A stretch of 64,000 bases of DNA, taken from the NCBI GenBank assembly GCA_964364425.1, contig CAYIMB010000002.1, positions 17,436 to 81,435 of the forward strand, read 5' to 3'. The stretch comes from an uncultured Gammaproteobacteria bacterium (GTDB taxonomy: Bacteria; Patescibacteriota; Patescibacteriia; UBA9570; JBBTWU01). Shown one piece after another: positions 2,693-63,309 of the stretch. A program made the translations under genes and the position numbers. Position 1 is the first letter of the stretch. The number at the start of each line of letters is the position of its first letter. Below the pieces are notes generated by a model. It had not been told where the DNA came from, did no database searches, and saw nothing but the letters and a program-made list of their open reading frames with translations.

Positions 2693-3157
2693 ATGAGAGG
2701 TAAATCAGCTCCAAAACGAAGTATTCTTCCAGATCCTCGGTACAAAAGCACATCCATGGCGAAGTTTATTAACTACATCATGGAACGGGGCAAGAAATCT
2801 GTAGCCCAAAAGATTGTCTACGGCGCGTTTGACATTATCAAAGAGAAGACCGGGAAAGAACCTATGGATGTGTATGATGCCGCTATGAAGAACATCACGC
2901 CGTCTGTGGAAGTGCGTGCCCGCCGGATTGGTGGCGCCAACTACCAAGTTCCAGTGGAAGTGAGTCCAGACCGCCGCTTCACCTTGGCCAGTCGTTGGCT
3001 CATTAACGCTGCTCGGGCGCGCAAAGGCCGCCCCATGGCAGAGAAGTTGGCCGCTGAGATTATGGATGCTCAAAACGAACAAGGTGACGCCTACAAAAAG
3101 AAAATGGATGTCCAACGCATGGCTGAAGCCAACCGTGCTTTTGCTCACTTTGCATAG
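2693..3157 (+). CDS. rpsG: 30S ribosomal protein S7
   Basis: S7 sequence. Follows rpsL as in the str operon. Confidence 0.95.
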
Positions 3158-3185
3158 GATTTAGTTCGATTTTCACAAAAAGTAG

Positions 3186-3268
3186 AGAAGGGCGACGGAA
3201 GCAGGGTCCGCGAGGCAGGGTGATTGAAGCTCCCGAACGAGCGGGCCCTGCTGAGTCGCCCTTTTGGT
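3186..3268 (+). ncRNA. Candidate structured RNA/structured repeat, copy A (homologous to 30992-31072)
   Basis: About 85% identical to copy B. Nested stems with compensatory substitutions between copies. Central loop GAAGCAGGGTGATTGAAGCTCCCG is identical in both. Confidence 0.4.
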
Positions 3269-3333
3269 TTCCATTAGTGAAAGTCGACAAAAAATGCTAT
3301 ACTCAAGGGCATAAGATCATTTATCCACAGCCT

Positions 3334-3732
3334 ATGAAAAAAGTCCTTGCTTTGGTGTCTGGTTGGGCGTTTGCTGCGTTTGCCCCAGTGGCAGCGTTAG
3401 CGCAAACAACCTCAGATTATAATTATAACTATGATTATAATTATAATTCCGGTGTGTCAGATGCCGCCGCCGCTGGCCTAGGAATTGGCCTCTTAATCTT
3501 CTGGGGCATCTTCATGATTATTGGCTTAGCCTTCTTGATCCTGTGGATCATGATGTTGGTTGATGCCATTAAACGCCAATGGCCAGAACGGACCACTTGG
3601 TTGATCATTTTGATCATCAGCTTCTTCCTGGGTTTGCACTGGTTGGCTGCTATCCTGTATTACTTCTTGGTCAAAAAGAAGAATGTGGGAACCAAATCTG
3701 GTGCCGCCGCTCCTATGGCTCCAGCAAAATAG
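3334..3732 (+). CDS. Small secreted/membrane protein (signal peptide, DYNYNYDYNYN repeat, 2-3 TM helices)
   Basis: ATG 3334 preferred over the 3220 start, which overlaps element A. Hydrophobic segments visible. Inserted between rpsG and fusA. Confidence 0.5.
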   Translation: MKKVLALVSGWAFAAFAPVAALAQTTSDYNYNYDYNYNSGVSDAAAAGLGIGLLIFWGIFMIIGLAFLILWIMMLVDAIKRQWPERTTWLIILIISFFLGLHWLAAILYYFLVKKKNVGTKSGAAAPMAPAK

Positions 3733-3864
3733 GTCGATTTTTTACAGACCACAAACACCCGGCCCCATGCCGGGTGTTTGCTTTTGTCTCATTTTGTCTA
3801 AAATGAAGAACCGACCGGAACTGCCTACAGGCAAGTCACGGTCGGTCCTCAGGGTGCAGGGGAA

Positions 3865-4404
3865 TCAGCCCCAGGGACCATTCCCGGGCTCCCAGTCGCA
3901 GGCCCGCTCCAGCCAGTTCTGGTTGTCCGGGTGGTGCCCAATCACTCCCTCCGCGGTGTGCAGCGGGGGCGGGATTTCCACACTGAGCTGCTCCGGCAGC
4001 TCGCGGTAGGCCTGGATCAGGGCGAGCCCCTGGCGCAGCTTGCCGGTCAACTCCATGGCCAGCCCCTGGCGGTAGTGGTACTGCCAGCTCGGCAAGTCCG
4101 GCATCTCTGACACCCTCCCGGACAGCTGGTCCAGGATGGTGTGGAAGCCGGCTTCCACCCGCTGGTCCTGGCAGGAGGTGCTCCCGCGGCCGTGCGTGAA
4201 GCACTCGTTGACCAGGTGCACTGAGATCTGGTGCAGGTCCACCAGGTCCAGCTCGTTGAGCATGCTGTCCACCCGCTGGGCCAGGTGGAACAGTCCGTGG
4301 GCCGCTGAGGCCCGTACTTGCATCATGTGCATCAGAACTCCTTGCCGCTTGGGAAAATAGCGGTCTAGTGCCCCTGTTTTACGCCCAATGGTATAAAAAG
4401 TCAA
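3865..4404 (-). CDS. Hypothetical protein, GC-rich foreign-looking gene (paralog of 4474-4935)
   Basis: 179-aa ORF with a TTG start directly after TAAATCGATTTA. GC-rich codon usage. Shares the W..H..L.GK...ALI.AYRELP.E block with the downstream gene. Confidence 0.5.
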   Translation of the reverse strand: MTFYTIGRKTGALDRYFPKRQGVLMHMMQVRASAAHGLFHLAQRVDSMLNELDLVDLHQISVHLVNECFTHGRGSTSCQDQRVEAGFHTILDQLSGRVSEMPDLPSWQYHYRQGLAMELTGKLRQGLALIQAYRELPEQLSVEIPPPLHTAEGVIGHHPDNQNWLERACDWEPGNGPWG

Positions 4405-4406
4405 TG

Positions 4407-4416
4407 TAAATCGATT
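4407..4416. repeat. AAATCGATTT palindrome (TAAATCGATTTA), 2 nt upstream of the minus-strand TTG start
   Basis: Exact 10-bp palindrome. Confidence 0.9.
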
Positions 4417-4424
4417 TACTCTTT

Positions 4425-4469
4425 TAAAAAAGAAGCGGCCGCTGGTCCCGAAAAGTGGAAACAGCGGCC
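4425..4469 (-). terminator. Rho-independent terminator for minus gene 4474-4935 (GGCCGCTG...CAGCGGCC + T-run)
   Basis: 8-bp inverted repeat followed on the minus strand by CTTCTTTTTT. Confidence 0.5.
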
Positions 4470-4473
4470 AACC

Positions 4474-4935
4474 TCAATGTGCGAAGGGGTCTACTGGGGC
4501 GGGGTGGAAGCCACCTCGCTGGCCTTGGCCGGGGGTTGCCATGAGGGGCCGCGGAGGACGCTTGCGCTCGGGCTCCGTTGGCAGCTCGCGGTAGGCCATG
4601 ATCAGGGCCTTGGCCTCCTTGACCTTGCCCTGGAGCTGCTCGAACTTGGCCACCCGGTGCATGCGCTCCCAGATCGCCAGGGTGGTGAATCCGGAGGAGT
4701 CCAGGTGACACTCGGTGAGCAGATGCTCCAGGCGGTTGACCTTGCTCTCCAGCGTGCCCAGCACAGACGAATCCTGCTGGAGCTGGAAGGCCAGGCTGAC
4801 CAGCTCACTGGCGAGCTGGGTGATGCCGTCCATCTCCTGCTCCCAGTTGGACAGAATGACGGTGTTGTTGACCTGCTGCAGCACCCCGGACAGAGCCAGG
4901 GCCGCGGTGAGCTTGATGTGGATGAGGCGTGCCAA
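4474..4935 (-). CDS. Hypothetical protein, GC-rich (paralog of 3865-4404)
   Basis: 153-aa ORF. GC-rich. Homologous C-terminal block to the neighbouring gene. Confidence 0.5.
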   Translation of the reverse strand: MARLIHIKLTAALALSGVLQQVNNTVILSNWEQEMDGITQLASELVSLAFQLQQDSSVLGTLESKVNRLEHLLTECHLDSSGFTTLAIWERMHRVAKFEQLQGKVKEAKALIMAYRELPTEPERKRPPRPLMATPGQGQRGGFHPAPVDPFAH

Positions 4936-4998
4936 ATGAAAACCCTCCTTATGGGCTTGCCTGTTCTACAGATTTTTTTTCGTTTCGTCAACCAGCTC

Positions 4999-5027
4999 TT
5001 GACGAACACCCTCATTTATCATATGTT
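4999..5027 (+). promoter_or_regulatory. Putative promoter TTGACG-17-TATGTT upstream of fusA
   Basis: Spacing and hexamers match the recurring promoter pattern in this window. The AAATCGATTT palindrome lies between the -10 and the fusA ATG. Confidence 0.4.
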
Positions 5028-5037
5028 CTAGGCCTGC

Positions 5038-5047
5038 AAATCGATTT
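5038..5047. repeat. AAATCGATTT palindrome, 13 nt upstream of the fusA ATG
   Basis: Exact 10-bp palindrome. Confidence 0.9.
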
Positions 5048-5059
5048 TTAATTTTTGTT

Positions 5060-7135
5060 ATGCCTCGAAAATATCCACTAGAAAAAACTCGCAACATTGG
5101 AATCATTGCGCATATTGATGCTGGGAAGACCACGGTATCTGAACGCGTGTTGTTTTACACCGGAAAAACCCACAAAATTGGTGAGGTGCATGAAGGTGAA
5201 GCCACTATGGATTGGATGGAACAAGAGCAAGAACGCGGGATTACCATCACTTCAGCGGCTACCACCTGTTTCTGGAAAGACTGCATGATCAACATCATTG
5301 ATACTCCAGGGCACGTGGATTTCACGGTGGAGGTGGAGCGGTCTTTGCGCGTGCTGGATGGTGGTGTGGTTATTTTTGATGGTGTGGCTGGGGTGGAACC
5401 TCAATCTGAAACAGTCTGGCACCAAGCGGATAAATACAACGTGCCTCGTATTTGTTTCATCAACAAAATGGATCGCACGGGTGCTGATTTTTACAAAGAC
5501 TTAGGCATGATTCATGACCGGTTGACCAAGAACGCACATCCCATTCAGTTACCAATTGGTGCTGAGGATAAATTTGAGGGGATGATTGACCTGCTCACAC
5601 GGAAAGCTTTCTACTACCGGGATGACATGGGTCAACAAGTGGAGGAGTTGGACGTGCCGGCTGACATGCAGGAGAAGGTAGAAAAGTACCGCGGACAGTT
5701 GATTGAAGCCATAGTAGAGCAAGATGAGAAAATGATGGAAGCGTACCTTGGTGGAACAGAGCCGAGTTTAGAAGAACTCAAGACAACGCTTCGTGCCGCG
5801 GTGGTGCAATTCAAAATCATTCCAGTCATGTGTGGTTCAGCTTTGAAGAACAAGGGCGTACAAAAAATGCTGGATGCTGTGGTGGATTACTTACCATCTC
5901 CGGTGGACACCCCAGCTATTGTAGGAACTGATCCAAACGACCCAGAGAAGAAAGTTGAACGTCATGCCAGTGATGAAGAACCAGTAGCCGCCTTGGCTTT
6001 CAAAGTAGCTTCTGACCCTTTTGTGGGTAAATTGACCTTCATCCGTGTGTACTCCGGTGTGTTGCAATCTGGTTCTTATGTGATGAACACCACCTCTGGT
6101 AAAAAGGAACGTATTTCCCGCTTGGTGAAATTACATGCCAACCACCGTGAAGATATTAGCGAGATCAGAGCAGGGGATATTGGCGCGGCGGTGGGTTTGA
6201 AAGAAACCAGGACTGGTGACACCTTGTGTGATGAAACCAACCCAGTGCAATTGGAAAACATTGTATTCCCAGAACCAGTTATTTCTATTGCTATTGAACC
6301 AAAGACCAAAGCTGACCAGGAAAAAATGGGTATTGCTTTGTCTAAACTATCTGAAGAAGACCCAACCTTCCGCGTACAATCTAACGAAGAAACTGGCCAG
6401 ACCTTAATCAGTGGTATGGGTGAGTTGCACCTGGAAATTATTGTGGACCGTATGAAACGTGAATTCTCTGTGGGCGCTAACGTGGGCGCTCCGCAAGTGG
6501 CGTATAAAGAAACCATTTCTCAACACGCTGAAGCTCAAGGAAAATATATCAAACAATCAGGTGGACGTGGTCAGTATGGAGACGCGTGGGTCAAGGTGGA
6601 TCCAAATCCAGGTAAGGGCTTTGAGTTTGTGGATGATGTGGTGGGCGGGGCTATCCCACGTGAATATATTCAGCCAGTGGGCAAAGGAGCCAAAGAAGCC
6701 CTGCTCAATGGTGTCTTGGCTGGCTACCCCATGGTAGATGTGATGGTGACGGTGTTTGATGGTTCTTACCATGAGGTTGACTCGTCTGAAGCGGCTTTCA
6801 AAGTAGCTGGTTCCATGGCTACTCAAGAAGCTTGTCGTAAAGCCAAGCCAGTGATTCTGGAACCGTTGATGAAAGTGGAAGTGATCACCCCAGAACAATT
6901 CATGGGTGATGTGATTGGTGACTTGAACTCCAAACGTGGACAAATTCAAGAGATGACTGACCGGGTGCAAATGAAAGTGGTGCGCGCAGAAGTGCCCTTG
7001 TCAGAAATGTTTGGCTACTCTACTTCACTCCGTTCCATGACCCAAGGCCGCGCTTCTTATTCCATGGAATTCCAAAAGTATGCCCCCGTGCCAAACAATG
7101 TAGCTACGCAGATTATAGAAGGCAAAAAGAAGTAA
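5060..7135 (+). CDS. fusA: Elongation factor G
   Basis: [17 protein letters not shown] and full-length EF-G homology (691 aa). Confidence 0.95.
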
Positions 7136-7140
7136 GGTCG

Positions 7141-7217
7141 ATTTTCACGCGCTCTGGAATGGCTCGGGACTCGCTTGCTCCGCGCTGACGCTTGTGCGCC
7201 TCGAGTCCCTGCGCCAC
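7141..7217. other. GC-rich extended imperfect inverted repeat (GCGCTCTGG...CCAGAGCGC, nested CTCGGGACTCG/CGAGTCCC) immediately after fusA
   Basis: Read directly: 9-bp perfect outer stem plus inner stems. Preceded by GTCGATTTTCAC. Confidence 0.5.
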
Positions 7218-7293
7218 CAGAGCGCTTCAATTACTCTCCTCCGCCATCTTCCGGCGCCTTTTGGTTATTTCAAACCAGTGCTAACATGCAGAC

Positions 7294-8160
7294 ATGAAAT
7301 TACGTTCAGAAGCACGCCGAACGTTCCAGAAATCAGCCGATGTTTTGCTTCCTCATGAAGAGTTGCAACCGCGGATTTTTGATCCGCGTTTAGATTTACC
7401 GGCCGGAGAATATGCAAAATTTCGTGACACTGTTAAACGAGACACCTCTTTTAAGGGACCTAAGAGATTTAAAATTCCCCATGTAGCTTGGATCAGTTGG
7501 TTTGACCCGTCTTATAGAGACGACTTGCGCGGTGTTGATAAATACAAAGAACAGCAGGTATCTGAACTGTTTATAAAAGCTAATCAAGTTCATGGCTTTG
7601 ACTCACAAATGAGAGTGTTAGAATTGAACCTTCAACTTGCCAGAGTGTTGCAACAATTTCCAGAGACTAGAAAAGAATTAAAAGAACTAACAGAAGTTTC
7701 ACGCTTAGAATATGTAATGGAATGGATTCGTGATGGCGTAGATCCACAAATGATTGTGAATTGGATTCAGATTTGGCCTGAACACAGGGCAAGAATTATG
7801 CAAGCAGCCTTTCCTAAAGGGTTGGAGGGTTTCTTGAAACAAGAAGAACAGAATTTATTTGACCCACCTAGCAATCAAGTCAATTATGCAGCCGACTTAA
7901 GTTTGCTTTTTCCAGAATCAAAAGCTTTTTTATTACAGCTGATCAAAGACGCACTCCCAAGAGAGCGAGCGAGACTAAGAGAATTGTCAAAAAGTATTAG
8001 TCCGGATGATTTTAAAACCTACCACCGTTTGATTGGAGACCTTACAATACTAGGTGCTGAGCAGGCTACCATTGATCAACACGGTCTGATTCAGGTTGAG
8101 CTACAACCTCTGCACAAACTCAGTGTCGTGCCACCATTACCGGACAGATCAACGTTATAA
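7294..8160 (+). CDS. Hypothetical protein, fourth member of the paralog family (C-terminal PPLPDRSTL)
   Basis: 288 aa. N-terminus MKLRSEARR.. and C-terminal region align with the 236 and 1107 genes. Stop lies inside TTATAAATCGATTTT. Confidence 0.6.
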   Translation: MKLRSEARRTFQKSADVLLPHEELQPRIFDPRLDLPAGEYAKFRDTVKRDTSFKGPKRFKIPHVAWISWFDPSYRDDLRGVDKYKEQQVSELFIKANQVHGFDSQMRVLELNLQLARVLQQFPETRKELKELTEVSRLEYVMEWIRDGVDPQMIVNWIQIWPEHRARIMQAAFPKGLEGFLKQEEQNLFDPPSNQVNYAADLSLLFPESKAFLLQLIKDALPRERARLRELSKSISPDDFKTYHRLIGDLTILGAEQATIDQHGLIQVELQPLHKLSVVPPLPDRSTL

Positions 8161-8168
8161 ATCGATTT
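8159..8168. repeat. AAATCGATTT palindrome between convergent genes
   Basis: Exact 10-bp palindrome. Confidence 0.9.
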
Positions 8169-8172
8169 TATT

Positions 8173-8463
8173 TCAAAATAACGGAACCGTTTGCGGGTGT
8201 TCTATTTTATTGATATGAGCATGTACTTCATTAAACCCAACGGCCACAATGCGGGCGAAATCTTCAACGCTTGTTTCAATGCGATGGTCCGTCCAATCGC
8301 GCATTGTATTGAACTCTTCTTTCACCCAAACCCTATCCTGCCGGCGGCCTTCAATAATAAATTCGCGTATTTCAGCGAAGTGTTTATTAGTAATAGACTG
8401 CTCGCCAGCTAGGCGCTGGTCAAGCAAGTCCATGAACCACTGTTTGTCTTCTTGCGTTAGCAT
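8173..8463 (-). CDS. Hypothetical protein (96 aa)
   Basis: ORF with the conserved TTGACT-16-TATGAT promoter 6 nt upstream of the ATG on the minus strand. Confidence 0.45.
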   Translation of the reverse strand: MLTQEDKQWFMDLLDQRLAGEQSITNKHFAEIREFIIEGRRQDRVWVKEEFNTMRDWTDHRIETSVEDFARIVAVGFNEVHAHINKIEHPQTVPLF

Positions 8464-8469
8464 GGATCA

Positions 8470-8498
8470 ATCATAGATCGCGGATTTGACCAGTCAAG
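8470..8498 (-). promoter_or_regulatory. Conserved promoter cassette TTGACT-16-TATGAT (copy 1), near-leaderless
   Basis: 26 of 29 nt identical to 63133-63161. -10 box ends 6 nt before the ATG. Confidence 0.5.
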
Positions 8499-8528
8499 TG
8501 GTATGTAGCGCCGTCTGTGGAAAAGTCT

Positions 8529-8601
8529 ATCTACTCACAGAATCAAATCGATTTTTACGGGATTTGATGCTCTGAGCAGAGGAGGATGGTTGGCGGTTCC
8601 A
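8529..8601 (+). repeat. Direct repeat R1 (73 nt; contains AAATCGATTT and an ATCAAATC/GATTTGAT hairpin)
   Basis: Matches 9387-9460 with one substitution and a 1-nt T indel. Confidence 0.85.
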
Positions 8602-8620
8602 TGAAAGTCAAGACCTAAAA

Positions 8621-8667
8621 ACAAAAAAATGGCTAACTTTAGCCATAAAAAACTGTGCGTACGCACA
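8621..8667 (-). terminator. Tandem hairpins downstream of the minus two-gene cassette: ATGGCTAAAGTTAGCCAT + T-run and CTGTGCGTACGCACAG
   Basis: Perfect 18-bp and 16-bp palindromes. T-run on the minus strand. Confidence 0.5.
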
Positions 8668-8682
8668 GATTTTTGTCTGAGA

Positions 8683-9000
8683 TTACACGCCTCGTTCTAG
8701 AGCCACCAATTTGGCAAATGGTTGTAAGAGTTGCCTCAGTTGACTGAGTGATACCCCGTATTCGCTTGTGTTTTGGCTCAAATCTGCAATCACTTCGTAC
8801 AACCGTCGCAGTTCTTTGCGTTGTTTTGCCGGTGCTCCACCAAAGGCGGAGAAACTGGCCAACTCCAACGCTCTAAATAGGCAGCTCTGGGCATGCTGTT
8901 GATCATTTTTTGCTTGCAAAGATTCCGCCCGCGCTAACTCACTCTCAATGTTCATGAGTTGTGTGGCCAAAGAAAACGTAGCCCAACGTTCAGCCGTCAT
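8683..9000 (-). CDS. Hypothetical helical protein (105 aa), second gene of the cassette
   Basis: ORF overlapping the upstream gene by ATGA (8997-9000). Confidence 0.45.
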   Translation of the reverse strand: MTAERWATFSLATQLMNIESELARAESLQAKNDQQHAQSCLFRALELASFSAFGGAPAKQRKELRRLYEVIADLSQNTSEYGVSLSQLRQLLQPFAKLVALERGV

Positions 9001-9344
9001 AACGCCAGCCGCTCAGTAATCACGGCCGCTACTTGCTGTTGAATAGCCGGATTTTGAATCAAGGTTTGTGTATTGCCTTGTTTGGGCCTGATGTTGATCA
9101 AAGACGTAAATTCCACCTGCTCTCCTTGAGGCCGCCCCGGAAAAATATTTGCTCCCCAGACATTTTTTTGTTTTGAACCTGAATCTAACAACACTGCCTC
9201 CGCATCTGCATGCAACTCACCACCAATGGCCAGAATTTTTTTATCAATATCCACTACCACCTTGACCATATCGCCGAAGGTGTCTTGAGCTAAGGCCAGA
9301 ACTTGTTCTTTTGGAAGTTTGTCGGTAACGATTTGAATTTCCAT
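8997..9344 (-). CDS. Hypothetical protein (115 aa; resembles conserved DUF-type small proteins, ...DMVKVVVDIDKKILAIGGELHADAE...)
   Basis: ORF. DUF-type family assignment is from memory only. Confidence 0.45.
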   Translation of the reverse strand: MEIQIVTDKLPKEQVLALAQDTFGDMVKVVVDIDKKILAIGGELHADAEAVLLDSGSKQKNVWGANIFPGRPQGEQVEFTSLINIRPKQGNTQTLIQNPAIQQQVAAVITERLAL

Positions 9345-9364
9345 GATTCCACTCTAGCAAAAAA

Positions 9365-9378
9365 GTGTGCACGTGCAC
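9365..9378. promoter_or_regulatory. TGTGCACGTGCACA palindrome upstream of the minus two-gene cassette
   Basis: Perfect palindrome. Related to CTGTGC-N4-GCACAG at 8652 and 49511. Confidence 0.4.
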
Positions 9379-9386
9379 AGGTGTAG

Positions 9387-9460
9387 TTCTACTCACAGAA
9401 TCAAATCGATTTTTACGGGATTTGATGCTCTGAGCAGAGGAGGATGGTTGGCGGTCCCAT
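9387..9460 (+). repeat. Direct repeat R2 (74 nt)
   Basis: See R1. Confidence 0.85.
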
Positions 9461-9476
9461 CACTCCCCGGAAGGTA

Positions 9477-10229
9477 CTACCGAACGGCCGTCCAGACCCC
9501 CATGTCGTCGCCGAAGGGCACGGCCAGGCCCACGTAGATCCGGCACGTGTCGCCGGAGCCGCTGCTGCTGGTCTTCTCGTAGAGGGTGACCGTGTGGTCG
9601 TCCGACGTGACGGTGAAGCCGCCGCAGTCGTCCGACCAGTTGGCGCCGGAAGACCACTCGGCCTGGATGTCCACCCACGAGTGGTCGCTCAGGTCCGTGG
9701 TGGACGGGCTGAACATCAGGGTGTCCGTGGACGCGGACACGCTGGCCGACGCGGAGCCGCCGGACCCGTACCAGGCCCAGATGGTGGCGGGGTAGGTGAG
9801 GCCGCCGCTTGCGTCGCGGGTGACCACAATCCTGAGGACCGTGGTAGCGCTGTCGCCCGTGTCCACGACCGCGGTGTCGGTCACGGAGGTGTCCGCGGTG
9901 TCGCCGGTGCCGTCGCAGTCGGTGTCCACGCCGTCGGTCGGATCCTCGGTCGCGCCGGGGTTCACCGTGGCGTCGCGGTCCGCGCAGTCGCCGCCGAACG
10001 GGGAGTACCCGCGGGGGCGCCGGGTGGCCCAGAGGTCGGAGCCGGGCGCGCCGTAGCCGTCGCGGTCGCCGTCCCACCAGTAGTGGGTGATGACGATCCG
10101 GCTGGTACGGGACAGCGCGGTGTTGCGGACTTCCATGGTCTCGGCGCGGTCGTTGGCGGGGGCCTTGGTCTCTACGACCGGGGCGGTGGAGCGGTCACAG
10201 GCCGCCAGAATCAGAAGCAGGGACGACAT
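9477..10229 (-). CDS. GC-rich lipoprotein with Asp-rich MopE-like putative metal-binding repeats
   Basis: Signal peptide plus lipobox LAAC. Motif DCADRD..VNPGATE..DG.DTDCDG. Foreign-looking GC-rich codon usage. Confidence 0.6.
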   Translation of the reverse strand: MSSLLLILAACDRSTAPVVETKAPANDRAETMEVRNTALSRTSRIVITHYWWDGDRDGYGAPGSDLWATRRPRGYSPFGGDCADRDATVNPGATEDPTDGVDTDCDGTGDTADTSVTDTAVVDTGDSATTVLRIVVTRDASGGLTYPATIWAWYGSGGSASASVSASTDTLMFSPSTTDLSDHSWVDIQAEWSSGANWSDDCGGFTVTSDDHTVTLYEKTSSSGSGDTCRIYVGLAVPFGDDMGVWTAVR

Positions 10230-10463
10230 GGGGTTCTCCCGGAGAATGAGTTTGGCCCTGAAGATGGCACCGAACTCAAGTGAAGGTCATTTCAAGCTGC
10301 GGTTGGCGTTTCTTAGGTACGTGTGAAACCTCCCCAAAAGCACTCAACACCCTTAGGGCAGGGCCAGCAAAAATACATGACAATCGAACCCTTGTCAATA
10401 ATGGGCCTTAATGCCAAAAACACTCAAAATTGGCTTGTCCTAAGGAAATCCACCCCAGTAGAC

Positions 10464-10491
10464 TTTACAAACTAAAAAATGTTGTTATAAT
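10464..10491 (+). promoter_or_regulatory. Putative tuf promoter TTTACA-16-TATAAT
   Basis: Hexamers read directly, about 60 nt upstream of the tuf ATG. Confidence 0.45.
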
Positions 10492-10550
10492 CAGCTTTGT
10501 GTTTCGAGATAATCGAAATTATTTTTACTTAATTCCTAAAGGGAACCTCA

Positions 10551-11741
10551 ATGGCTGACAAGTTTGACCGCTCAAAACCGCACGTCAACGTGGGTACCAT
10601 TGGTCACGTTGACCATGGAAAAACCACCACCACAGCTGCTATTTTAGCTGTGCTTAACGCTGTCGGCGGTAAGGCTCAACAGAAATCTGTTGACCAAATA
10701 GACGCTGCTCCAGAAGAAAAAGCACGTGGTATTACTATCAATACCGCTCACGTGGAGTATGAGACTGAAAAACGTCACTATGCTCACGTGGACTGTCCAG
10801 GTCACGCTGACTATGTGAAGAACATGATTACCGGTGCCGCCCAGATGGATGGGGCCATTTTAGTTGTGTCCGCCGCCGACGGTCCTATGCCTCAAACCCG
10901 TGAACACATCCTCTTGGCTCGCCAAGTCGGAGTGCCTTACATTGTGGTGTTCTTGAACAAAGTTGACCAAGTAGACGACCCAGAGTTGTTGGATTTAGTG
11001 GAAGTGGAAATTCGCGACTTGCTCAAGAAATATGAATTCCCAGGTGATGAAACACCAATGATCCGAGGGAGTGCCTTGAAAGCCTTGGAAAATCCAAAAG
11101 ATTCAGCGGCCAACAAGTGTATCTTGGACCTCATGAACGCCTTGGATACCTATATTCCAGAGCCAAAACGTGACGTAGACAAGCCTTTCTTAATGCCAAT
11201 TGAGGACATCTTCTCTATTGAAGGTCGTGGCACAGTGGTCACCGGACGGATTGAACGTGGCATGATCAAACTCAACGAAGAAGTGGAAATTGTGGGTTTG
11301 ACTCCAACCGCTAAAACAGTCGTGACCGGTATTGAAATGTTCAACAAACAGCTGGACGAAGGTCGTGCCGGTGATAACGCTGGTGTGTTGTTGCGTGGTA
11401 CCAAGAAAGAAGAAGTTCAACGTGGACAAGTCTTGGCAAAGACCGGAACCATCACTCCTCACACTGAATTTGAGACAGAAGTATATATTCTGTCCAAAGA
11501 AGAAGGCGGCCGTCACACTCCATTCCTAAAAGGCTATAAACCTCAATTCTACATGCGGACCACTGATGTCACAGGTGAGGTGATATTGCCAGAAGGAACT
11601 GAAATGGTGATGCCAGGTGACACCATGAAGCTCAGCGTTAAGTTGATTGCCCCAGTCGCCATGGAAGAACAACAACGCTTCGCCATCCGTGAGGGTGGTC
11701 ACACCGTAGGCGCCGGAGTTATTACTAAGATTCTCAAATAA
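10551..11741 (+). CDS. tuf: Elongation factor Tu
   Basis: GHVDHGKTT and DCPGHADY motifs. 396 aa. Confidence 0.95.
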
Positions 11742-11812: not shown

Positions 11813-12172
11813 ATGACCACTAAGACAGTCAAGAAGCCAACTGAAGTCAATGGAAATGAGGAGCCAAAGTCTCGTATTCGCGTGAAAATTCGCGCTTACG
11901 ACTCCAAGATCATTGATCAGTCCACCAAGACTATTATAGAAACGGCTTTACGCAGCGGAGCCACTATTGCAGGTCCAGTGCCGTTGCCTACAGAAAAGCA
12001 CCGCTACACTGTGCTCAAATCGACCTTTGTGCATAAGAACGCACGGGATCAGTTTGAAATGCGGGTACATAAGCGCTTGATTGATATAGTCAACCCAAAC
12101 GCCAAGACCATTGATGACCTGTCTCACCTGAACCTTCCCTCAGGTGTTGACGTGGAAATGAAAATGGTATAA
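11813..12172 (+). CDS. rpsJ: 30S ribosomal protein S10
   Basis: S10 homology. Confidence 0.9.
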   Translation: MTTKTVKKPTEVNGNEEPKSRIRVKIRAYDSKIIDQSTKTIIETALRSGATIAGPVPLPTEKHRYTVLKSTFVHKNARDQFEMRVHKRLIDIVNPNAKTIDDLSHLNLPSGVDVEMKMV

Positions 12173-30991: not shown

Positions 30992-31072
30992 AAGAGTGAC
31001 GGAAGCGGGGTCTGCGAAGCAGGGTGATTGAAGCTCCCGTATGAGCAGACCCCCGCTGAGTCACTATTTGGT
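30992..31072 (+). ncRNA. Candidate structured RNA/structured repeat, copy B (homologous to 3186-3268)
   Basis: See copy A. Lies between the ferredoxin stop and the TTGCAA-16-TATGTT box (31076-31103). Confidence 0.4.
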
Positions 31073-38646: not shown

Positions 38647-39093
38647 ATGCTGGCGACTGCACTGCCAACTGTGACCCTGAAGCCCCCCGCGGGTTTCGTC
38701 CACGATCAGCGTTCCCAGGGCTGGGAGCTCCTAGAAGAAGGCCCGAAGGTCGAAGGAGAGCCCATCCTGGACTTTCTAGGCTTCCTGCGGGAAGGCGAGA
38801 CCTACATCAACGGTGAGACCGTCCTTGCCCGCGCCCTCGAGATGGAAGGGACCGAGAGCGGTCAGCACCACCTCGAGCGGCTGCTCGCCCAGGCCGCCAG
38901 CATCCCCGCGGAGCTGCGCTCGTTCTACCTCGTCGCCACCGGCACCAAGTGGCGGTACCCCGACGGTTACGTGTGCGTCCCGTACCTGCGCTTCGTCGGC
39001 GGCCAGTGGGTCCTGCTCTTCTACGGGGTCGGCAACGACCGCTGGAGCGTCGGCGATCGGGTCGTCCGCGTCTGCAAGCAGCCTGGGTCCTAG
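38647..39093 (+). CDS. GC-rich small protein, cassette copy A (paralog of 50966-51400)
   Basis: Aligns along its whole length with copy B (…GW.L…GEP.L.F..FL..GET…MEG…H.ER.L…IP.ELR.FYLV..GT.WR…VP.L…). Consensus SD AAGGAGGTG. Confidence 0.6.
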   Translation: MLATALPTVTLKPPAGFVHDQRSQGWELLEEGPKVEGEPILDFLGFLREGETYINGETVLARALEMEGTESGQHHLERLLAQAASIPAELRSFYLVATGTKWRYPDGYVCVPYLRFVGGQWVLLFYGVGNDRWSVGDRVVRVCKQPGS

Positions 39094-45881: not shown

Positions 45882-47489
45882 ATGGAAACTGAATTATCTA
45901 GACCCGGTATACCTAGACACAAACCCCAAGAGTTTGAGCATGTAGTCATGGTTGTGGTTCCAGAGGGAGCCATCCAAGCAGATTTGCAACAATTGGAGAA
46001 GCGCGGGGTGAAGGTGCGTGATCAAGTAGTCACGGTTGAATATGAATACGGAGATAACGACATGGCCCTGGCTGATTATCAGTTTTCAGACGGAGCGTTT
46101 TGTTTGGTGAAAAAGTATGATAGCAATGTGCATTGGCCGGATGTTGTGGCTGAAAAGAGCAAGGCACAAGAATGGGCCGGTGATGTTCCTTTTTTGGTCA
46201 AAAAGAAACCTGAGAGCATTTCAACTATCCCGTCTGAAGGCTCACGTTCGCCTGAACCGCCACCCCCTAGTCCGCCTCCAGCGCCGCCTCCTGAAACTCC
46301 ACCGGCCTCTCCCACCCCGCCTGAGTGGCCATCTTTTGAATCCGAGAGAGAGTGGGAGTTATTGCAAAGGTATTGGAGGTTAGTGGCTCAAATTGAAGAT
46401 GCCCAACTGAAGATAGAACAGGCAAAGATTACCGAACGGAGACAGGAAATTCCTATTCAAACACGACGTTTAGAGATTGGACAAAAAAATTTACAACAAT
46501 TTCTAGTTCATCATCCGGAGTACACAAACCTTCCCAAGCCTTTGGAGGTTGCCAGTATAGATTTAGCGAGCGTAGAGGGCAGGAGGCGAGCCAAGGCGTT
46601 GTTGTTAGATAGTGATTTATCTCCAGTCGAAGCGGGCAAGCGCATCATAGCCATTGAGAAGGCGGGAGCTAAAATCGAATTACATCATCCAAAGTTGGAA
46701 CAGGGAGTTGGCACCAGTGCTGTGCGGCCTCCGCTCAAAACGGTCATGACTGACTTGAAGGAGGCACAGTACCGTGTTGGCCGTTTGAATAGTTTAGGGT
46801 TGTTGAGTCAACTCCAACATGGGGACACCCGGCATAATAATTTGCTGCGCTTAAAATCCACACGCCAGAGTTTAGAATATATTTTAAAACGATTTTCACC
46901 TCCCCCTCACGCCGACTCCTCCCTTAGCCGAGATTTTTTAGCTTTGCTGCATGGAGTGGTGGACGCCGTGAAGAAGGTTGAACAAGGGACCCAAAAAAAC
47001 TTTTTGTCTCGCTGGTGGTCACAGAATGAACTGATTCAACAACACAGAAAAATTGGTCAGGGCTTAAAAAAGTTAGAACAATTTACCCAGGAACACAGGG
47101 AGTTTGTGTACGCTTGCGCCCAGATCGAATTTCAACTAAGGTGGGCCAACACTTGGAGTTTTCATGTTCTCCGTCACCGTCCAGCAGTTCTCCGCCTGGA
47201 ACATCCTGTACCTGTTCATGATCCTGCTCGGCACCCTGATCCTGCTGTCCGCGCTGGTCATCCAAGACTGGCTCTGGATGAACAGGGAGACCGGTGTCTC
47301 GGCAGGAACGGCAGTCATGAACTTGCGCTTCTGGCAGTTAGCCTCCTGCTTGGTGGGGATCTCCTCCGCCTACGGAGCAGTCCCGCCGGTGCTGTTTGTG
47401 ACCGTCCCGACCTGGTTCCTCCTGACCCGCATGGTCGGGATGCCCCTGAGCGCGGCCATGATCGCTGCGGCGTGGTATGTGGCGTGTAG
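45882..47489 (+). CDS. Hypothetical Pro-rich protein
   Basis: ATG 45882. After ~47160 the frame runs into GC-rich DNA and translates to Arg/Pro junk until a chance stop. Confidence 0.45.
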   Translation: METELSRPGIPRHKPQEFEHVVMVVVPEGAIQADLQQLEKRGVKVRDQVVTVEYEYGDNDMALADYQFSDGAFCLVKKYDSNVHWPDVVAEKSKAQEWAGDVPFLVKKKPESISTIPSEGSRSPEPPPPSPPPAPPPETPPASPTPPEWPSFESEREWELLQRYWRLVAQIEDAQLKIEQAKITERRQEIPIQTRRLEIGQKNLQQFLVHHPEYTNLPKPLEVASIDLASVEGRRRAKALLLDSDLSPVEAGKRIIAIEKAGAKIELHHPKLEQGVGTSAVRPPLKTVMTDLKEAQYRVGRLNSLGLLSQLQHGDTRHNNLLRLKSTRQSLEYILKRFSPPPHADSSLSRDFLALLHGVVDAVKKVEQGTQKNFLSRWWSQNELIQQHRKIGQGLKKLEQFTQEHREFVYACAQIEFQLRWANTWSFHVLRHRPAVLRLEHPVPVHDPARHPDPAVRAGHPRLALDEQGDRCLGRNGSHELALLAVSLLLGGDLLRLRSSPAGAVCDRPDLVPPDPHGRDAPERGHDRCGVVCGV

Positions 47490-47541
47490 CTTCGGCTACT
47501 TCTACTGCATCTACGCCCCGCGCAAGCTGCAGACTTTCTAG
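47164..47541 (+). CDS. GC-rich small membrane protein (4 TM)
   Basis: Convincing TM ORF in a different frame inside the GC-rich segment ~47160-47600. Confidence 0.5.
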   Translation: MFSVTVQQFSAWNILYLFMILLGTLILLSALVIQDWLWMNRETGVSAGTAVMNLRFWQLASCLVGISSAYGAVPPVLFVTVPTWFLLTRMVGMPLSAAMIAAAWYVACSFGYFYCIYAPRKLQTF

Positions 47542-50128: not shown

Positions 50129-50653
50129 ATGTTGGCCCTGCTCCTGTCCGCCTGTTCCAAACTAGCGCTGGAGGACTGCACTGACCGCCACCACGAGCCC
50201 CGCAACTCCGACACGCACAGCACCTCCGACGGCATCTCGACCAACTCCACTCCGGCCGAGCAGGGTGCCCCCTGCCCTCAGCGCACTGACCAGCGCACGG
50301 GCAACGGGGCCATCACCCTGACCTTGGAGCTGGACAAGCCGGAAACCTTCACCCTGCGTCCGGTCACTGGCCTCACGGTGGAGGATACCTACACCGTCCC
50401 CAACACACACGTCCTGGGCTACAACCCGGAGACCGGGGCTGAGCTGTTCGTGGGGGAGCAGGCAGTGCTCTACTACTGCGACACTGACTTCTGGTTCTAC
50501 TGGGGCGATCTGGACGTGAACCACGTCATGGACTCGCGGGGGAGCGGCCTCTACCACAGCTCACAGCGGATGTACAACGAGGACAGCACCCTGCGTGAGA
50601 CCCGTCAGGTGGACTTCCGGATCCGCGTCACGGGCCTGGTGTTTCGCCAGTAG
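50129..50653 (+). CDS. GC-rich lipoprotein (lipobox LLSAC), unknown function
   Basis: Signal peptide plus Cys. GC-rich. Confidence 0.5.
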   Translation: MLALLLSACSKLALEDCTDRHHEPRNSDTHSTSDGISTNSTPAEQGAPCPQRTDQRTGNGAITLTLELDKPETFTLRPVTGLTVEDTYTVPNTHVLGYNPETGAELFVGEQAVLYYCDTDFWFYWGDLDVNHVMDSRGSGLYHSSQRMYNEDSTLRETRQVDFRIRVTGLVFRQ

Positions 50654-50965: not shown

Positions 50966-51400
50966 ATGAGCAGCCCCTTGGCGCTCCCTGGCATGAAGCT
51001 GAAGGCCCCCAAGGGCCTGATCTACGACAAGCGGAAGGAGGGATGGGCCCTCACCAAGGAGGGCGACCAGATCGAAGGTGAGCCCGACCTGGAGTTCGTG
51101 CCCTTCCTCCAAGGCGGCGAGACCGCCATCGTGGGAACCACCATGGTGGAACGCGCCGTCGCCATGGAGGGCCTCACCAGCCAGTACCACGCTGAGAGGA
51201 TGCTCCAGCAGCAGGACCAGATCCCGCCGGAGCTGCGGCCGTTCTACCTGGTCTTCGCCGGTACGGAATGGCGGGACTCCGACGGCGACCTCTGCGTCCC
51301 GTGCCTCTTCTGGTACGGCGACGAGTGGATCCTGTACTTCGACTGGCTCGCCCGCGGGAGCTGGGGCTCCCGCGCTCGGCTGGTTCGTCTCCGCAAGTAG
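50966..51400 (+). CDS. GC-rich small protein, cassette copy B (paralog of 38647-39093)
   Basis: See copy A. SD AAGGAGGTG. Homologous 3' tail 51401-51560. Confidence 0.6.
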   Translation: MSSPLALPGMKLKAPKGLIYDKRKEGWALTKEGDQIEGEPDLEFVPFLQGGETAIVGTTMVERAVAMEGLTSQYHAERMLQQQDQIPPELRPFYLVFAGTEWRDSDGDLCVPCLFWYGDEWILYFDWLARGSWGSRARLVRLRK

Positions 51401-62773: not shown

Positions 62774-63124
62774 TTATTTGTTTGGTAAGACTACTTCTTC
62801 TAATTTAGTTGTTCTAGATTCCAGATTATTATAGTTGAAATGAATTGAGGCGGATTCAGCCATAAAGGTTTCATAGCTTTTAGTGACTTTATCCGCCATA
62901 CCTTGAATGATATTGATGGTTTTATCTAGTTTATCGTCCATGGTGTCAAAGCGCTCGTCATGTTCCATGAGCTTTTTGAATACAAATTCAAAGTTTTTAT
63001 TGTAATGTTTGAATTTTTGGCGAAGCTCTGAACAAAAGGTATCAAATTCATGCTTAAAAACTCCTAATTCTTGGTTTAAATATCCTTTAGTCACCAATTC
63101 ACCTTGATGTTGCTTGTTTTTCAT
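62774..63124 (-). CDS. Hypothetical AT-rich small protein
   Basis: ATG at 63124. Conserved TTGACC-16-TATGAT promoter 8 nt upstream. Confidence 0.45.
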   Translation of the reverse strand: MKNKQHQGELVTKGYLNQELGVFKHEFDTFCSELRQKFKHYNKNFEFVFKKLMEHDERFDTMDDKLDKTINIIQGMADKVTKSYETFMAESASIHFNYNNLESRTTKLEEVVLPNK

Positions 63125-63132
63125 ACACAGCA

Positions 63133-63161
63133 ATCATAGATCGCGGATTTCACAGGTCAAG
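63133..63161 (-). promoter_or_regulatory. Conserved promoter cassette (copy 2) TTGACC-16-TATGAT
   Basis: 26/29 identity with 8470-8498. Confidence 0.5.
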
Positions 63162-63309
63162 AGCACACTTCAGCGCCCCCTGTGGATAATTCTTGCCCGG
63201 GCAGGAGTTTTCCACCCCCCCAATGCTTAAACGATCTGATCTTCTCAACCCCGTTTTATTCGTGTATACTACAGTGAGTAGTCAAAAAGTCGTTAAAACA
63301 AACAACAAC

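Follow-up and report, generated by a model that had tools for sequence, protein, structure and literature searches.

The window analysed here is a stretch of 64,000 nucleotides from a metagenome-assembled genome of a member of the Patescibacteria (candidate phyla radiation, CPR) from Hainich groundwater, and all coordinates count from its first letter. It contains the genes of the str operon, rpsL, rpsG, fusA and tuf, which are separated here by two blocks of additional genes. The original prediction named these four genes correctly according to Pfam: rpsL is at 2262-2681 (+; S12, 1.5e-37), rpsG at 2693-3157 (+; S7, 4e-63), fusA at 5060-7135 (+; five domains of elongation factor G, EF-G) and tuf at 10551-11741 (+; domains 1-3 of elongation factor Tu, EF-Tu). 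Downstream of tuf, rpsJ (11813-12172) continues into the S10 genes. The order rpsL-rpsG-fusA-tuf on one strand is kept, and contiguity is lost. The extra genes, predicted as about 1.9 kb and 3.4 kb, sit where they were expected: gap 1, from rpsG to fusA, spans 3158-5059 (1902 bp, three genes) and gap 2, from fusA to tuf, spans 7136-10550 (3415 bp, five genes). The canonical str operon of E. coli and most bacteria has the same four genes in the same order and orientation, with the S10 operon (rpsJ, rplC) next. The window differs from it in the 1.9 and 3.4 kb gaps, in the hairpin downstream of rpsG, in the separate promoters of fusA and tuf and in the presence of minus-strand genes inside the cluster.

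Close relatives of the window organism are represented by seven short contigs (L082, L084, L085, L090, L091, L092 and L093) that were found via exact homolog look-ups. Their EF-G, S7 and S12 proteins are 95-99% identical (fusA 95-98%), and rpsL and rpsG are 97-99% identical in L089 and L093. In host genes of the close relatives, identity at four-fold sites is 0.50-0.64 and the synonymous divergence (dS, method NG86) is 0.7-1.25.

Gap 1 has the content that had been predicted, a hairpin element, a small membrane protein and two GC-rich minus-strand paralogs. The hairpin is long and GC-rich, is followed by TTTTGGTTT (3186-3275, +; -66.9 kcal/mol, z = -7.0) and resembles a terminator or attenuator after rpsG. 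In L093, the same place after rpsG is occupied by a hairpin that differs in sequence, is alike in structure and has a textbook U-run. The membrane protein (131 aa, 3337-3732, +) has a host-like composition, with a G+C content at third codon positions (GC3) of 0.54, and an 85% identical ortholog is found at the equal position in L093. The Pfam search of this protein returned zero families above the cutoff. An extended -10 box, TGcTATACT (3295-3303, +), was recognised by eye upstream of the gene and is kept in L093, and an intrinsic terminator with a 12-bp stem and a T-run (3752-3780, +) follows it.

GC-rich gene 1 (3865-4332, -; GC3 0.91) encodes 155 aa from an ATG at 4332, which is preceded by an AAGGAG Shine-Dalgarno sequence; the open reading frame (ORF) extends to 4404. 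Its promoter-like site, TTGACT-17-TAAAAC (4376-4404, -), is kept in L084 and L093 in the alignment, and a AAATCGATTT palindrome lies immediately upstream of this site at 4408-4417. The gene ends in a hairpin and T-run (3800-3847, -; stem 3810-3817 / 3840-3847, then TCTTCATTTT on the minus strand). Its orthologs in L084 (52%) and L093 (44%) have GC3 values of 0.88-0.91. GC-rich gene 2 (4474-4935, -; GC3 0.86) encodes 153 aa from a TTG start with a GGAGGG Shine-Dalgarno sequence. It has a promoter-like site, TTGACG-17-TAGAAC (4963-4991, -), and its sequence also ends in a hairpin and T-run (4424-4472, -). Orthologs of gene 2 with GC3 values of 0.94-0.95 are present in L082 (69-77%) and L084 (48%), and the gene is missing from L093. 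The two genes are paralogs (BLASTP 2e-6) and both contain the motif ALI(Q/M)AYRELP. The stretches that encode this motif (29 nt, 3995-4023 and 4580-4608) are 93% identical between paralogs that are otherwise 27% identical in protein, and represent either a short gene-conversion tract or the outcome of restricted codon choice. The AlphaFold model of gene 2 is a four-helix bundle (predicted local distance difference test, pLDDT, 77). A Foldseek comparison of this model with the PDB gave nothing with E < 0.08; the best matches are generic bundles (among them Avd-like and '23S rRNA-intervening sequence' proteins) and were not used as evidence.

Gap 2 begins with a GC-rich hairpin after fusA (7149-7225, +; z = -4.7). 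At this place L085 has a different hairpin with a T-run and L086 has none. The first gene (7294-8160, +; GC3 0.34) encodes the PL protein, a 288-aa all-alpha repeat protein with a C-terminal PLPDR. It is the fifth member of a family that is arrayed four-fold upstream of rpsL, is paralogous to the genes at 236-1099 and 1068-1976, and has orthologs in L085 and L086 at 42-45%. Its AlphaFold model is an all-alpha solenoid for which a specific structural match is absent. The second gene (8173-8463, -) encodes a 96-aa protein with orthologs in L085, L086 and L090. A promoter-like site, TTGACT-16-TATGAT (8470-8497), ends 6 nt before its ATG, and the promoter region is kept in the same three relatives. 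This region (8464-8527) is repeated at 63131-63193, upstream of an ORF at 62774-63133. At the PL gene, the sequence TGcTAACAT likewise ends 6 nt before the ATG (7279-7294), and the mRNAs of both genes look leaderless from this spacing. Two overlapping genes follow (8683-9344, -), encoding a DUF5674 protein (8997-9344; PF18924, 1e-33, 116 bits, full-length at profile positions 2-107 of 109) and a 105-aa helical protein (8683-9000). Their orthologs in L085, L090 and L092 are 73-84% identical.

A 73-nt direct repeat is present at 8530-8602 (copy 1, a hairpin with AAATCGATTT in its loop) and at 9388-9460 (copy 2, between the lipoprotein gene and the DUF5674 gene). The copies are 99% identical to each other. 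Copy 2 is the ancestral one: the element is 78-82% conserved in L085 and L090, and the position of copy 1 is empty there. Because the relatives hold one copy, between the lipoprotein and DUF5674 genes, the second copy is a local, lineage-specific duplication and not a cassette boundary. Of the three-gene, repeat-flanked cassette that had been proposed, the repeat exists; it brackets two genes only, with 8173-8463 outside. A mobile repeat-flanked cassette was rejected, given the single 73-nt element at a conserved intergenic position in the relatives.

The last gene of gap 2 (9477-10229, -; GC 0.71, GC3 0.95) encodes a 250-aa lipoprotein with one MopE motif, a Cys/Asp-rich segment of about 30 residues (PF11617, 4e-8, 33.7 bits against a cutoff of 27, residues 81-110). 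The MopE-like lipoprotein and the hairpin had both been predicted for this gap and both are present. Outside the single motif the lipoprotein is clade-specific. Orthologs (39-67% identical, GC3 0.93-0.97) with a conserved lipobox are directly upstream of tuf in L085, L090, L091 and L092. A promoter-like site, TTGACA-17-TATTTT (10370-10398, -), implies a 5' leader of about 140 nt, and its TTGACA is kept in all four aligned sequences. Within the putative leader (10230-10370, -), the blocks CAGCTTGAAA, GGTTTCAC and AGGGTGTTG are kept in L090 and L091 and less so in L092, and this stretch may be a regulatory leader.

In the close relatives, the same genes are found at the same junctions. GC-rich paralogs are immediately upstream of fusA in L082, L084 and L093. 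L093 contains rpsL, rpsG, the membrane protein gene and GC-rich gene 1, which is divergent from fusA; L084 contains both GC-rich paralogs and an additional small GC-rich ORF. In L085, fusA is followed by the PL, 96-aa, 105-aa, DUF5674 and lipoprotein genes in the order of the window. In L090, L091 and L092, the lipoprotein gene is divergent from tuf, and L090 and L091 contain a second GC-rich lipoprotein that is not in the window. L086 has other content past the 96-aa gene. Since these genes recur at these junctions in relatives with dS of about 0.7-1.2, the split is ancestral to the clade and not recent. As judged from these contigs, it predates the divergence of the lineages, and small gains, losses and duplications continue to alter the blocks. 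The claim of recent accessory insertions marked by foreign GC is contradicted by this shared content, as well as by the absence of mobility genes and donor homologs. The original prediction had also held that relatives with the same gene content and without compositional contrast would indicate an old, stable arrangement; the relatives do share the content, and the compositional contrast nonetheless persists.

A wider synteny survey covered 80 loci found with EF-G. In the non-CPR loci (about 60), the rpsG-fusA and fusA-tuf gaps are mostly 20-200 bp, which agrees with the expectation that these genes are contiguous in most bacteria. In several comparison genomes, tuf is detached from fusA. In distant CPR (EF-G 60-72% identical), the rpsG-fusA gap ranges from 29 to 2054 bp, and the fusA-tuf gap from 123 to 5069 bp where tuf is nearby. 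The contents of these junctions, which include pilin-like proteins, a 1251-aa surface protein and a small ORF, are unrelated to those of the window, and no GC3-rich genes are present in the distant CPR str loci. The idea of an insertion hotspot survives to the extent that the fusA-tuf junction is variable across the CPR, with unrelated contents; the recent insertions that went with it do not.

The predicted compositional contrast is strong. The median GC3 of 70 non-overlapping ORFs in the window is 0.47, with a median absolute deviation of 0.036, and the highest value of a normal gene is 0.61. The three minus-strand GC-rich genes in the str gaps have values of 0.84-0.95. Seven genes of this kind (GC3 0.84-0.95) are present in the window and one more in the 10 kb upstream of it (contig L087), so that about 74 kb contain at least eight members of this fast-evolving class, of which many encode lipoproteins or membrane proteins. 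The five genes outside the str gaps (GC3 0.85-0.91) have host-like flanks and are located at 38647-39093, 47164-47541, 50129-50653 and 50966-51400 (all +) and at L087:52-801 (-). They are two 49%-identical paralogs, one membrane protein and two lipoproteins. The GC3-rich class is genome-wide and not specific to the str region. Location on the opposite strand, which had been proposed as a mark of these genes, is not general, and a strand or antisense cause of the GC-richness was rejected, as the four others in the window are on the plus strand.

In each GC-rich gene the periodicity of G+C content over the three codon positions (for example 0.58/0.59/0.95) fixes the coding frame. All eight genes share a codon style that prefers C over G at the third position (GCC, GGC, ACC, CTG). 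Along the lipoprotein gene, GC3 is evenly 0.8-1.0. The GC-richness ends at the boundaries of the coding sequences (CDSs), and flanking intergenic DNA, promoters and leaders have a GC content of 0.38-0.56. The amino acid composition is mildly shifted, with Arg over Lys and a low share of FYMINK residues.

The GC-rich state is retained in every relative, where the orthologs have GC3 values of 0.81-0.97 and neighbouring genes 0.35-0.55. In the main test, four-fold degenerate sites in conserved codons were compared in pairs, and changes between a strong (G or C) and a weak (A or T) base (S/W) were counted separately from C<->G changes (S/S). Host-like genes have 447 S/W and 73 S/S differences, with a fraction of 0.45 of the sites differing; GC-rich genes have 88 S/W and 233 S/S differences, with a fraction of 0.41 (Fisher's exact p = 1e-67). 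Under a strict filter that requires identical flanking residues, the ratios are 168:27 and 15:53. Two-fold sites admit transitions as the sole synonymous change, and of these sites 22-30% differ in host-like genes and 7-10% in GC-rich genes. Simple amelioration from a GC3 of about 0.97 at dS near 1 predicts about 0.65-0.75 by our estimate. The silent sites of the GC-rich genes have turned over yet stay G or C, which points to a gene-specific fixation bias towards G/C and seems incompatible with a mere shortage of time. The PL gene provides a control: it evolves equally fast (42-45% identity between relatives) and has GC3 values of just 0.34-0.46. Fast evolution was therefore rejected as the cause of the GC-richness.

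The promoter-like boxes that had been predicted for fusA and tuf are present and nearly invariant in three to four relatives. The fusA site, TTGACG-17-TATGTT (4999-5027, +), is followed by a leader with a AAATCGATTT palindrome (5038-5047) and is invariant from the -10 box through the ATG in L082, L084 and L093. The tuf site, TTTACA-16-TATAAT with TG (10464-10491, +), has 11/12 matches and an extended -10. Its -35 box, extended -10 and leader are nearly invariant in L090, L091 and L092, and the sequence just upstream has diverged. The site upstream of rpsL, TTGACA-16-TATGAT with TG (2153-2180, +), also has 11/12 matches. GC-rich gene 2 and the lipoprotein gene are divergent from fusA and tuf, with promoters back to back; both belong to the GC3-rich class. 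Every GC-rich gene that was checked has a good Shine-Dalgarno sequence. A sigma-70-like promoter is present as well at each of the three GC-rich genes of the str gaps, and genes 1 and 2 have a terminator of hairpin and T-run. In a search of the whole window at gathering thresholds, Rfam returned two tRNAs only, and the hairpins and leaders were unmatched. Given the promoter footprints and the replacement of the rpsG-downstream hairpin by a U-run hairpin in L093, rpsL-rpsG, fusA and tuf-rpsJ are most likely transcribed separately. The operon had been called broken; it is physically split and, to judge from the rpsG-downstream hairpin and the conserved promoters, very likely split in transcription too. 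The convergent terminators likewise speak against one transcript that starts upstream of rpsL.

The arrangement is likely the product of an old, clade-specific remodelling of the str cluster, with resident orphan genes and a GC3-biased subset among them, and not of recent foreign insertions. The common ancestor of the window organism and at least seven related populations would already have had the cluster in three transcription units: rpsL-rpsG, closed by a long terminator-like hairpin; fusA with its own promoter; and tuf, with its own promoter, reading into rpsJ and the S10 genes. Small genes restricted to the lineage, and each transcribed on its own, would have filled the spaces. Every one of them has a promoter-like site; a Shine-Dalgarno sequence is present in most and a terminator hairpin in several. 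Later turnover would have proceeded through local duplication and loss, giving one or two four-helix-bundle paralogs, one or two GC-rich lipoproteins and the duplicated 73-nt element, and a VapBC pair upstream of rpsL would have been lost. In the GC3-rich subset, the coding sequence alone would be held at 0.8-0.97 by a G/C fixation bias at synonymous sites. Selection on the coding sequence or the mRNA, which would retain atypical codon usage for expression control or mRNA stability, is favoured as the candidate cause of this bias over GC-biased gene conversion (gBGC), since the composition switches at start and stop codons.

Several observations weigh against this remodelling. Separate transcription is read from sequence alone, and the hairpin downstream of fusA is without a clean U-run. 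The contigs of the close relatives are 1-6 kb long and come from few groundwater read sets. The pairwise S/W and S/S counts are phylogenetically non-independent. In the closest pair (GC-rich gene 2, window and L082), S/W differences (7) exceed S/S differences (4), and the window copy has four S>W and no W>S changes; a weak S>W decay of gene 2 may be under way in the lineage of the window. The apparent dN/dS of the GC-rich genes, 0.5-0.77, is high for functional genes, and their dS is underestimated when the alphabet is restricted to C and G. An ancient high-GC donor may have contributed, as the MopE motif is typical of proteins of high-GC, Myxococcota-type lineages.

The closest competitor keeps the ancestral arrangement and attributes the high GC3 to gBGC in recombination hot spots among variable surface-protein genes, which would recombine between strains or paralogs with mismatch repair in favour of G/C. 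Higher GC3 has been reported for recombining bacterial genes (Lassalle et al. 2015, PMC4450053), which makes gBGC plausible. The window resembles that report in the within-genome heterogeneity of GC3, in the fixation bias towards G/C and in that selection for optimal codons does not explain the pattern. It differs in being extreme and bimodal (0.84-0.95 against 0.47), gene-specific and bounded by start and stop codons. The GC-rich genes are fast-evolving, variable in copy number and often paralogous, the 29-nt stretch is 93% identical between paralogs that are 27% identical, and the preference for Arg over Lys and the low FYMINK share fit a force on all sites. Conversion tracts, however, are expected to ignore CDS boundaries, unless selection on promoters masks the effect, and the composition changes at start and stop codons, with GC at 0.38-0.56 within 30-140 bp, in flanks that are short and functionally constrained. 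The PL family is equally variable and paralog-rich, yet not GC-rich. The bias needed for a GC3 of 0.95 against 0.47 is about 3 population-scaled units by our estimate, which to our knowledge is far above what has been reported for bacteria. This explanation is considered unlikely; if biased conversion were the cause, the window would be the strongest bacterial case that we know of.

Less probable still are two recent horizontal insertions of high-GC foreign DNA at a hotspot, with the contrast being un-ameliorated donor composition. The codon-position pattern and the codon preferences do resemble those of an organism of about 70% GC, the MopE motif is commonest in high-GC lineages, and the distant CPR are without these genes and have other content at the junctions. 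Against this, the same junctions are occupied in seven populations with host-gene dS of 0.7-1.2, GC3 is 0.81-0.97 throughout and not at the level predicted by amelioration, synonymous turnover is C<->G only, and flanks, promoters and leaders are host-like. Donor homologs are also lacking. Among 5.8 billion proteins, 6 belong to the GC-rich paralog family, and an exhaustive profile search gave 10 matches among 1.84e9 representatives, 8 of them genuine and 2 spurious repeat or coiled-coil proteins. The PL family has 12 members among the 5.8e9 proteins. The lipoprotein has 6 full-length relatives in the same set, beyond which the 30-residue MopE motif alone matches. In these searches, full-length homologs were found only on contigs of the same clade and none in a plausible donor lineage.

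The gap genes also carry no signs of mobility. Among all gap proteins, searches with Pfam, NCBIfam, PHROGs and PADLOC recovered only DUF5674 and the MopE motif, and no integrase, transposase, phage or defence families. There is no tRNA target in the str region, and the viral contigs searched contain zero relatives of the GC-rich family or the lipoprotein. Scans of JGI metagenomes with the conserved fusA-leader and tuf-promoter patterns gave no matches. The only flanking repeat is the locally duplicated 73-nt intergenic element. No integrase domain is present in the gap ORFs and, on inspection, the 73-nt repeat has no recognisable R'/R'' attC cores; integron cassettes are promoterless, whereas the gap genes have their own promoters. 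Of the features of a recent island, atypical composition is present, and absence from relatives, marks of mobility, donor homologs and amelioration are not.

An artefact, either chimeric assembly or spurious ORFs in GC-rich non-coding DNA, is very improbable: long ORFs do exist in several frames, such as 9444-10283 (+) and 9460-10077 (-) overlapping the lipoprotein gene, and the apparent dN/dS is high, but the junctions are recovered in independent assemblies from separate read sets (ENA, NCBI, Logan; contig L083 is 100% identical), the strong frame-specific periodicity is retained in orthologs, Shine-Dalgarno sequences, starts, lipobox and protein motifs are conserved, and there are a Pfam motif match and a confident structure model.

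In the model of Lawrence and Ochman, acquired islets with atypical GC are said to ameliorate towards the host. The gap genes are like such islets in forming small orphan blocks of un-host-like composition at a variable locus. They are unlike them in having no mobility genes or donor homologs, conserved synteny, no amelioration and a composition confined to the CDS. Bacterial ORFans and acquired genes are usually AT-richer than the host, not GC-richer. In Streptomyces, the bldA/TTA system involves a subset of genes with genome-atypical codons. By analogy only, a codon-atypical subset could tie expression to certain tRNAs or conditions in the window organism as well; here, unlike bldA/TTA, whole CDSs are recoded to G/C-ending codons and not single codons. 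The split str cluster is a variant of known behaviour, and the maintained GC3 class is the unusual part. We know of no description of a maintained bimodal codon regime in one small bacterial genome. The literature searched gave no account of a small bacterial genome with a GC3 regime that is bimodal, persistent and CDS-bounded, and nothing specific on GC-rich islands in Patescibacteria or on split str operons in CPR. Brandis, Cao and Hughes (2019, PMC6735719) report that clusters of translation genes in Gammaproteobacteria, although highly conserved, are interrupted over evolutionary time by lineage-specific, multigene insertions between operons. In the window, the breaks are inside the str operon, and the downstream genes acquired or kept promoters.

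A tentative proposal is that the GC3-rich genes form a distinct class of fast-evolving, clade-restricted genes whose synonymous sites are selectively kept at about 90-97% G/C for expression control in a genome with a GC3 of about 47%. Members of the class are likely often lipoproteins or membrane proteins that face the host or the environment. Expression could, for example, depend on particular tRNAs, or the mRNAs could resist AU-directed RNases or toxins. The pattern suggests that synonymous sites of certain genes in this tiny genome are under a strong force; should that force be selection, these symbiotic, ultra-small bacteria would regulate genes or protect mRNAs in an unusual way. Recent transfer is the routine reading of atypical GC. 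Here the contrast persists across lineages near saturation at silent sites, with change that is C<->G only, so atypical GC does not in itself prove that a transfer was recent. In CPR, even the most conserved translation operon can come apart permanently, and fusA and tuf acquired or kept promoters of their own; this matters for operon-based annotation and for the use of gene neighbourhoods as markers.

The AAATCGATTT palindrome (10 bp) occurs 20 times with at most one mismatch, against 3 expected. The sites include 228, 1099, 1975, 4408, 5038, 8159, 8545 and 9403. PL paralogs have the palindrome at their stop codons; it is also part of the invariant leader of fusA, precedes the promoter of GC-rich gene 1 and lies in the loop of the 73-nt repeat. 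The palindrome may be the binding site of a regulator. A related sequence, TCGATTTTCAC, is located directly after the stop codons of rpsG and fusA, and TCGATTTTCAT is within the putative lipoprotein promoter. The hairpin downstream of rpsG (3186-3266) has a sister copy at 30995-31065 (93% over 42 nt), upstream of an ORF at 31028. The hairpin downstream of fusA and L093 (1380-1480) share modules with it (CTTCAATTACTCT), and together these look like a small family of terminator-like hairpin repeats.

Upstream of rpsL, a 64-aa ORF (2008-2202, +) is the C-terminal remnant of a ribbon-helix-helix antitoxin. An intact antitoxin and PIN (VapC) toxin are located between the PL array and rpsL in L093 (2504-3182) and L089 (2723-3500); in L089, the gene caller fused PIN to rpsL.

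In the distant CPR, type IV pilin-like proteins with an N-terminal FTLIELL are encoded in the fusA-tuf gap of L005 (12204-13343) and L006 (2726-5519) and in the rpsG-fusA gap of L070 (9077-9925). A conserved small ORF is found in the fusA-tuf gap of Falkowbacteria, Moranbacteria, Saccharibacteria and others, adjoining tuf where tuf is on the contig (L002:3897-4319, L003:12087-12419, L004:15511-15795, L005:13414-13707, L006:5729-6010, L007:12750-13124 and L059:12742-13098). A search for it in the window found it absent there. Its consensus starts with M..QLKK.I.L.KKTGDRII.FD....V.M.L..YE.L, and the ORF could belong to the CPR str cluster without having been recognised as part of it.

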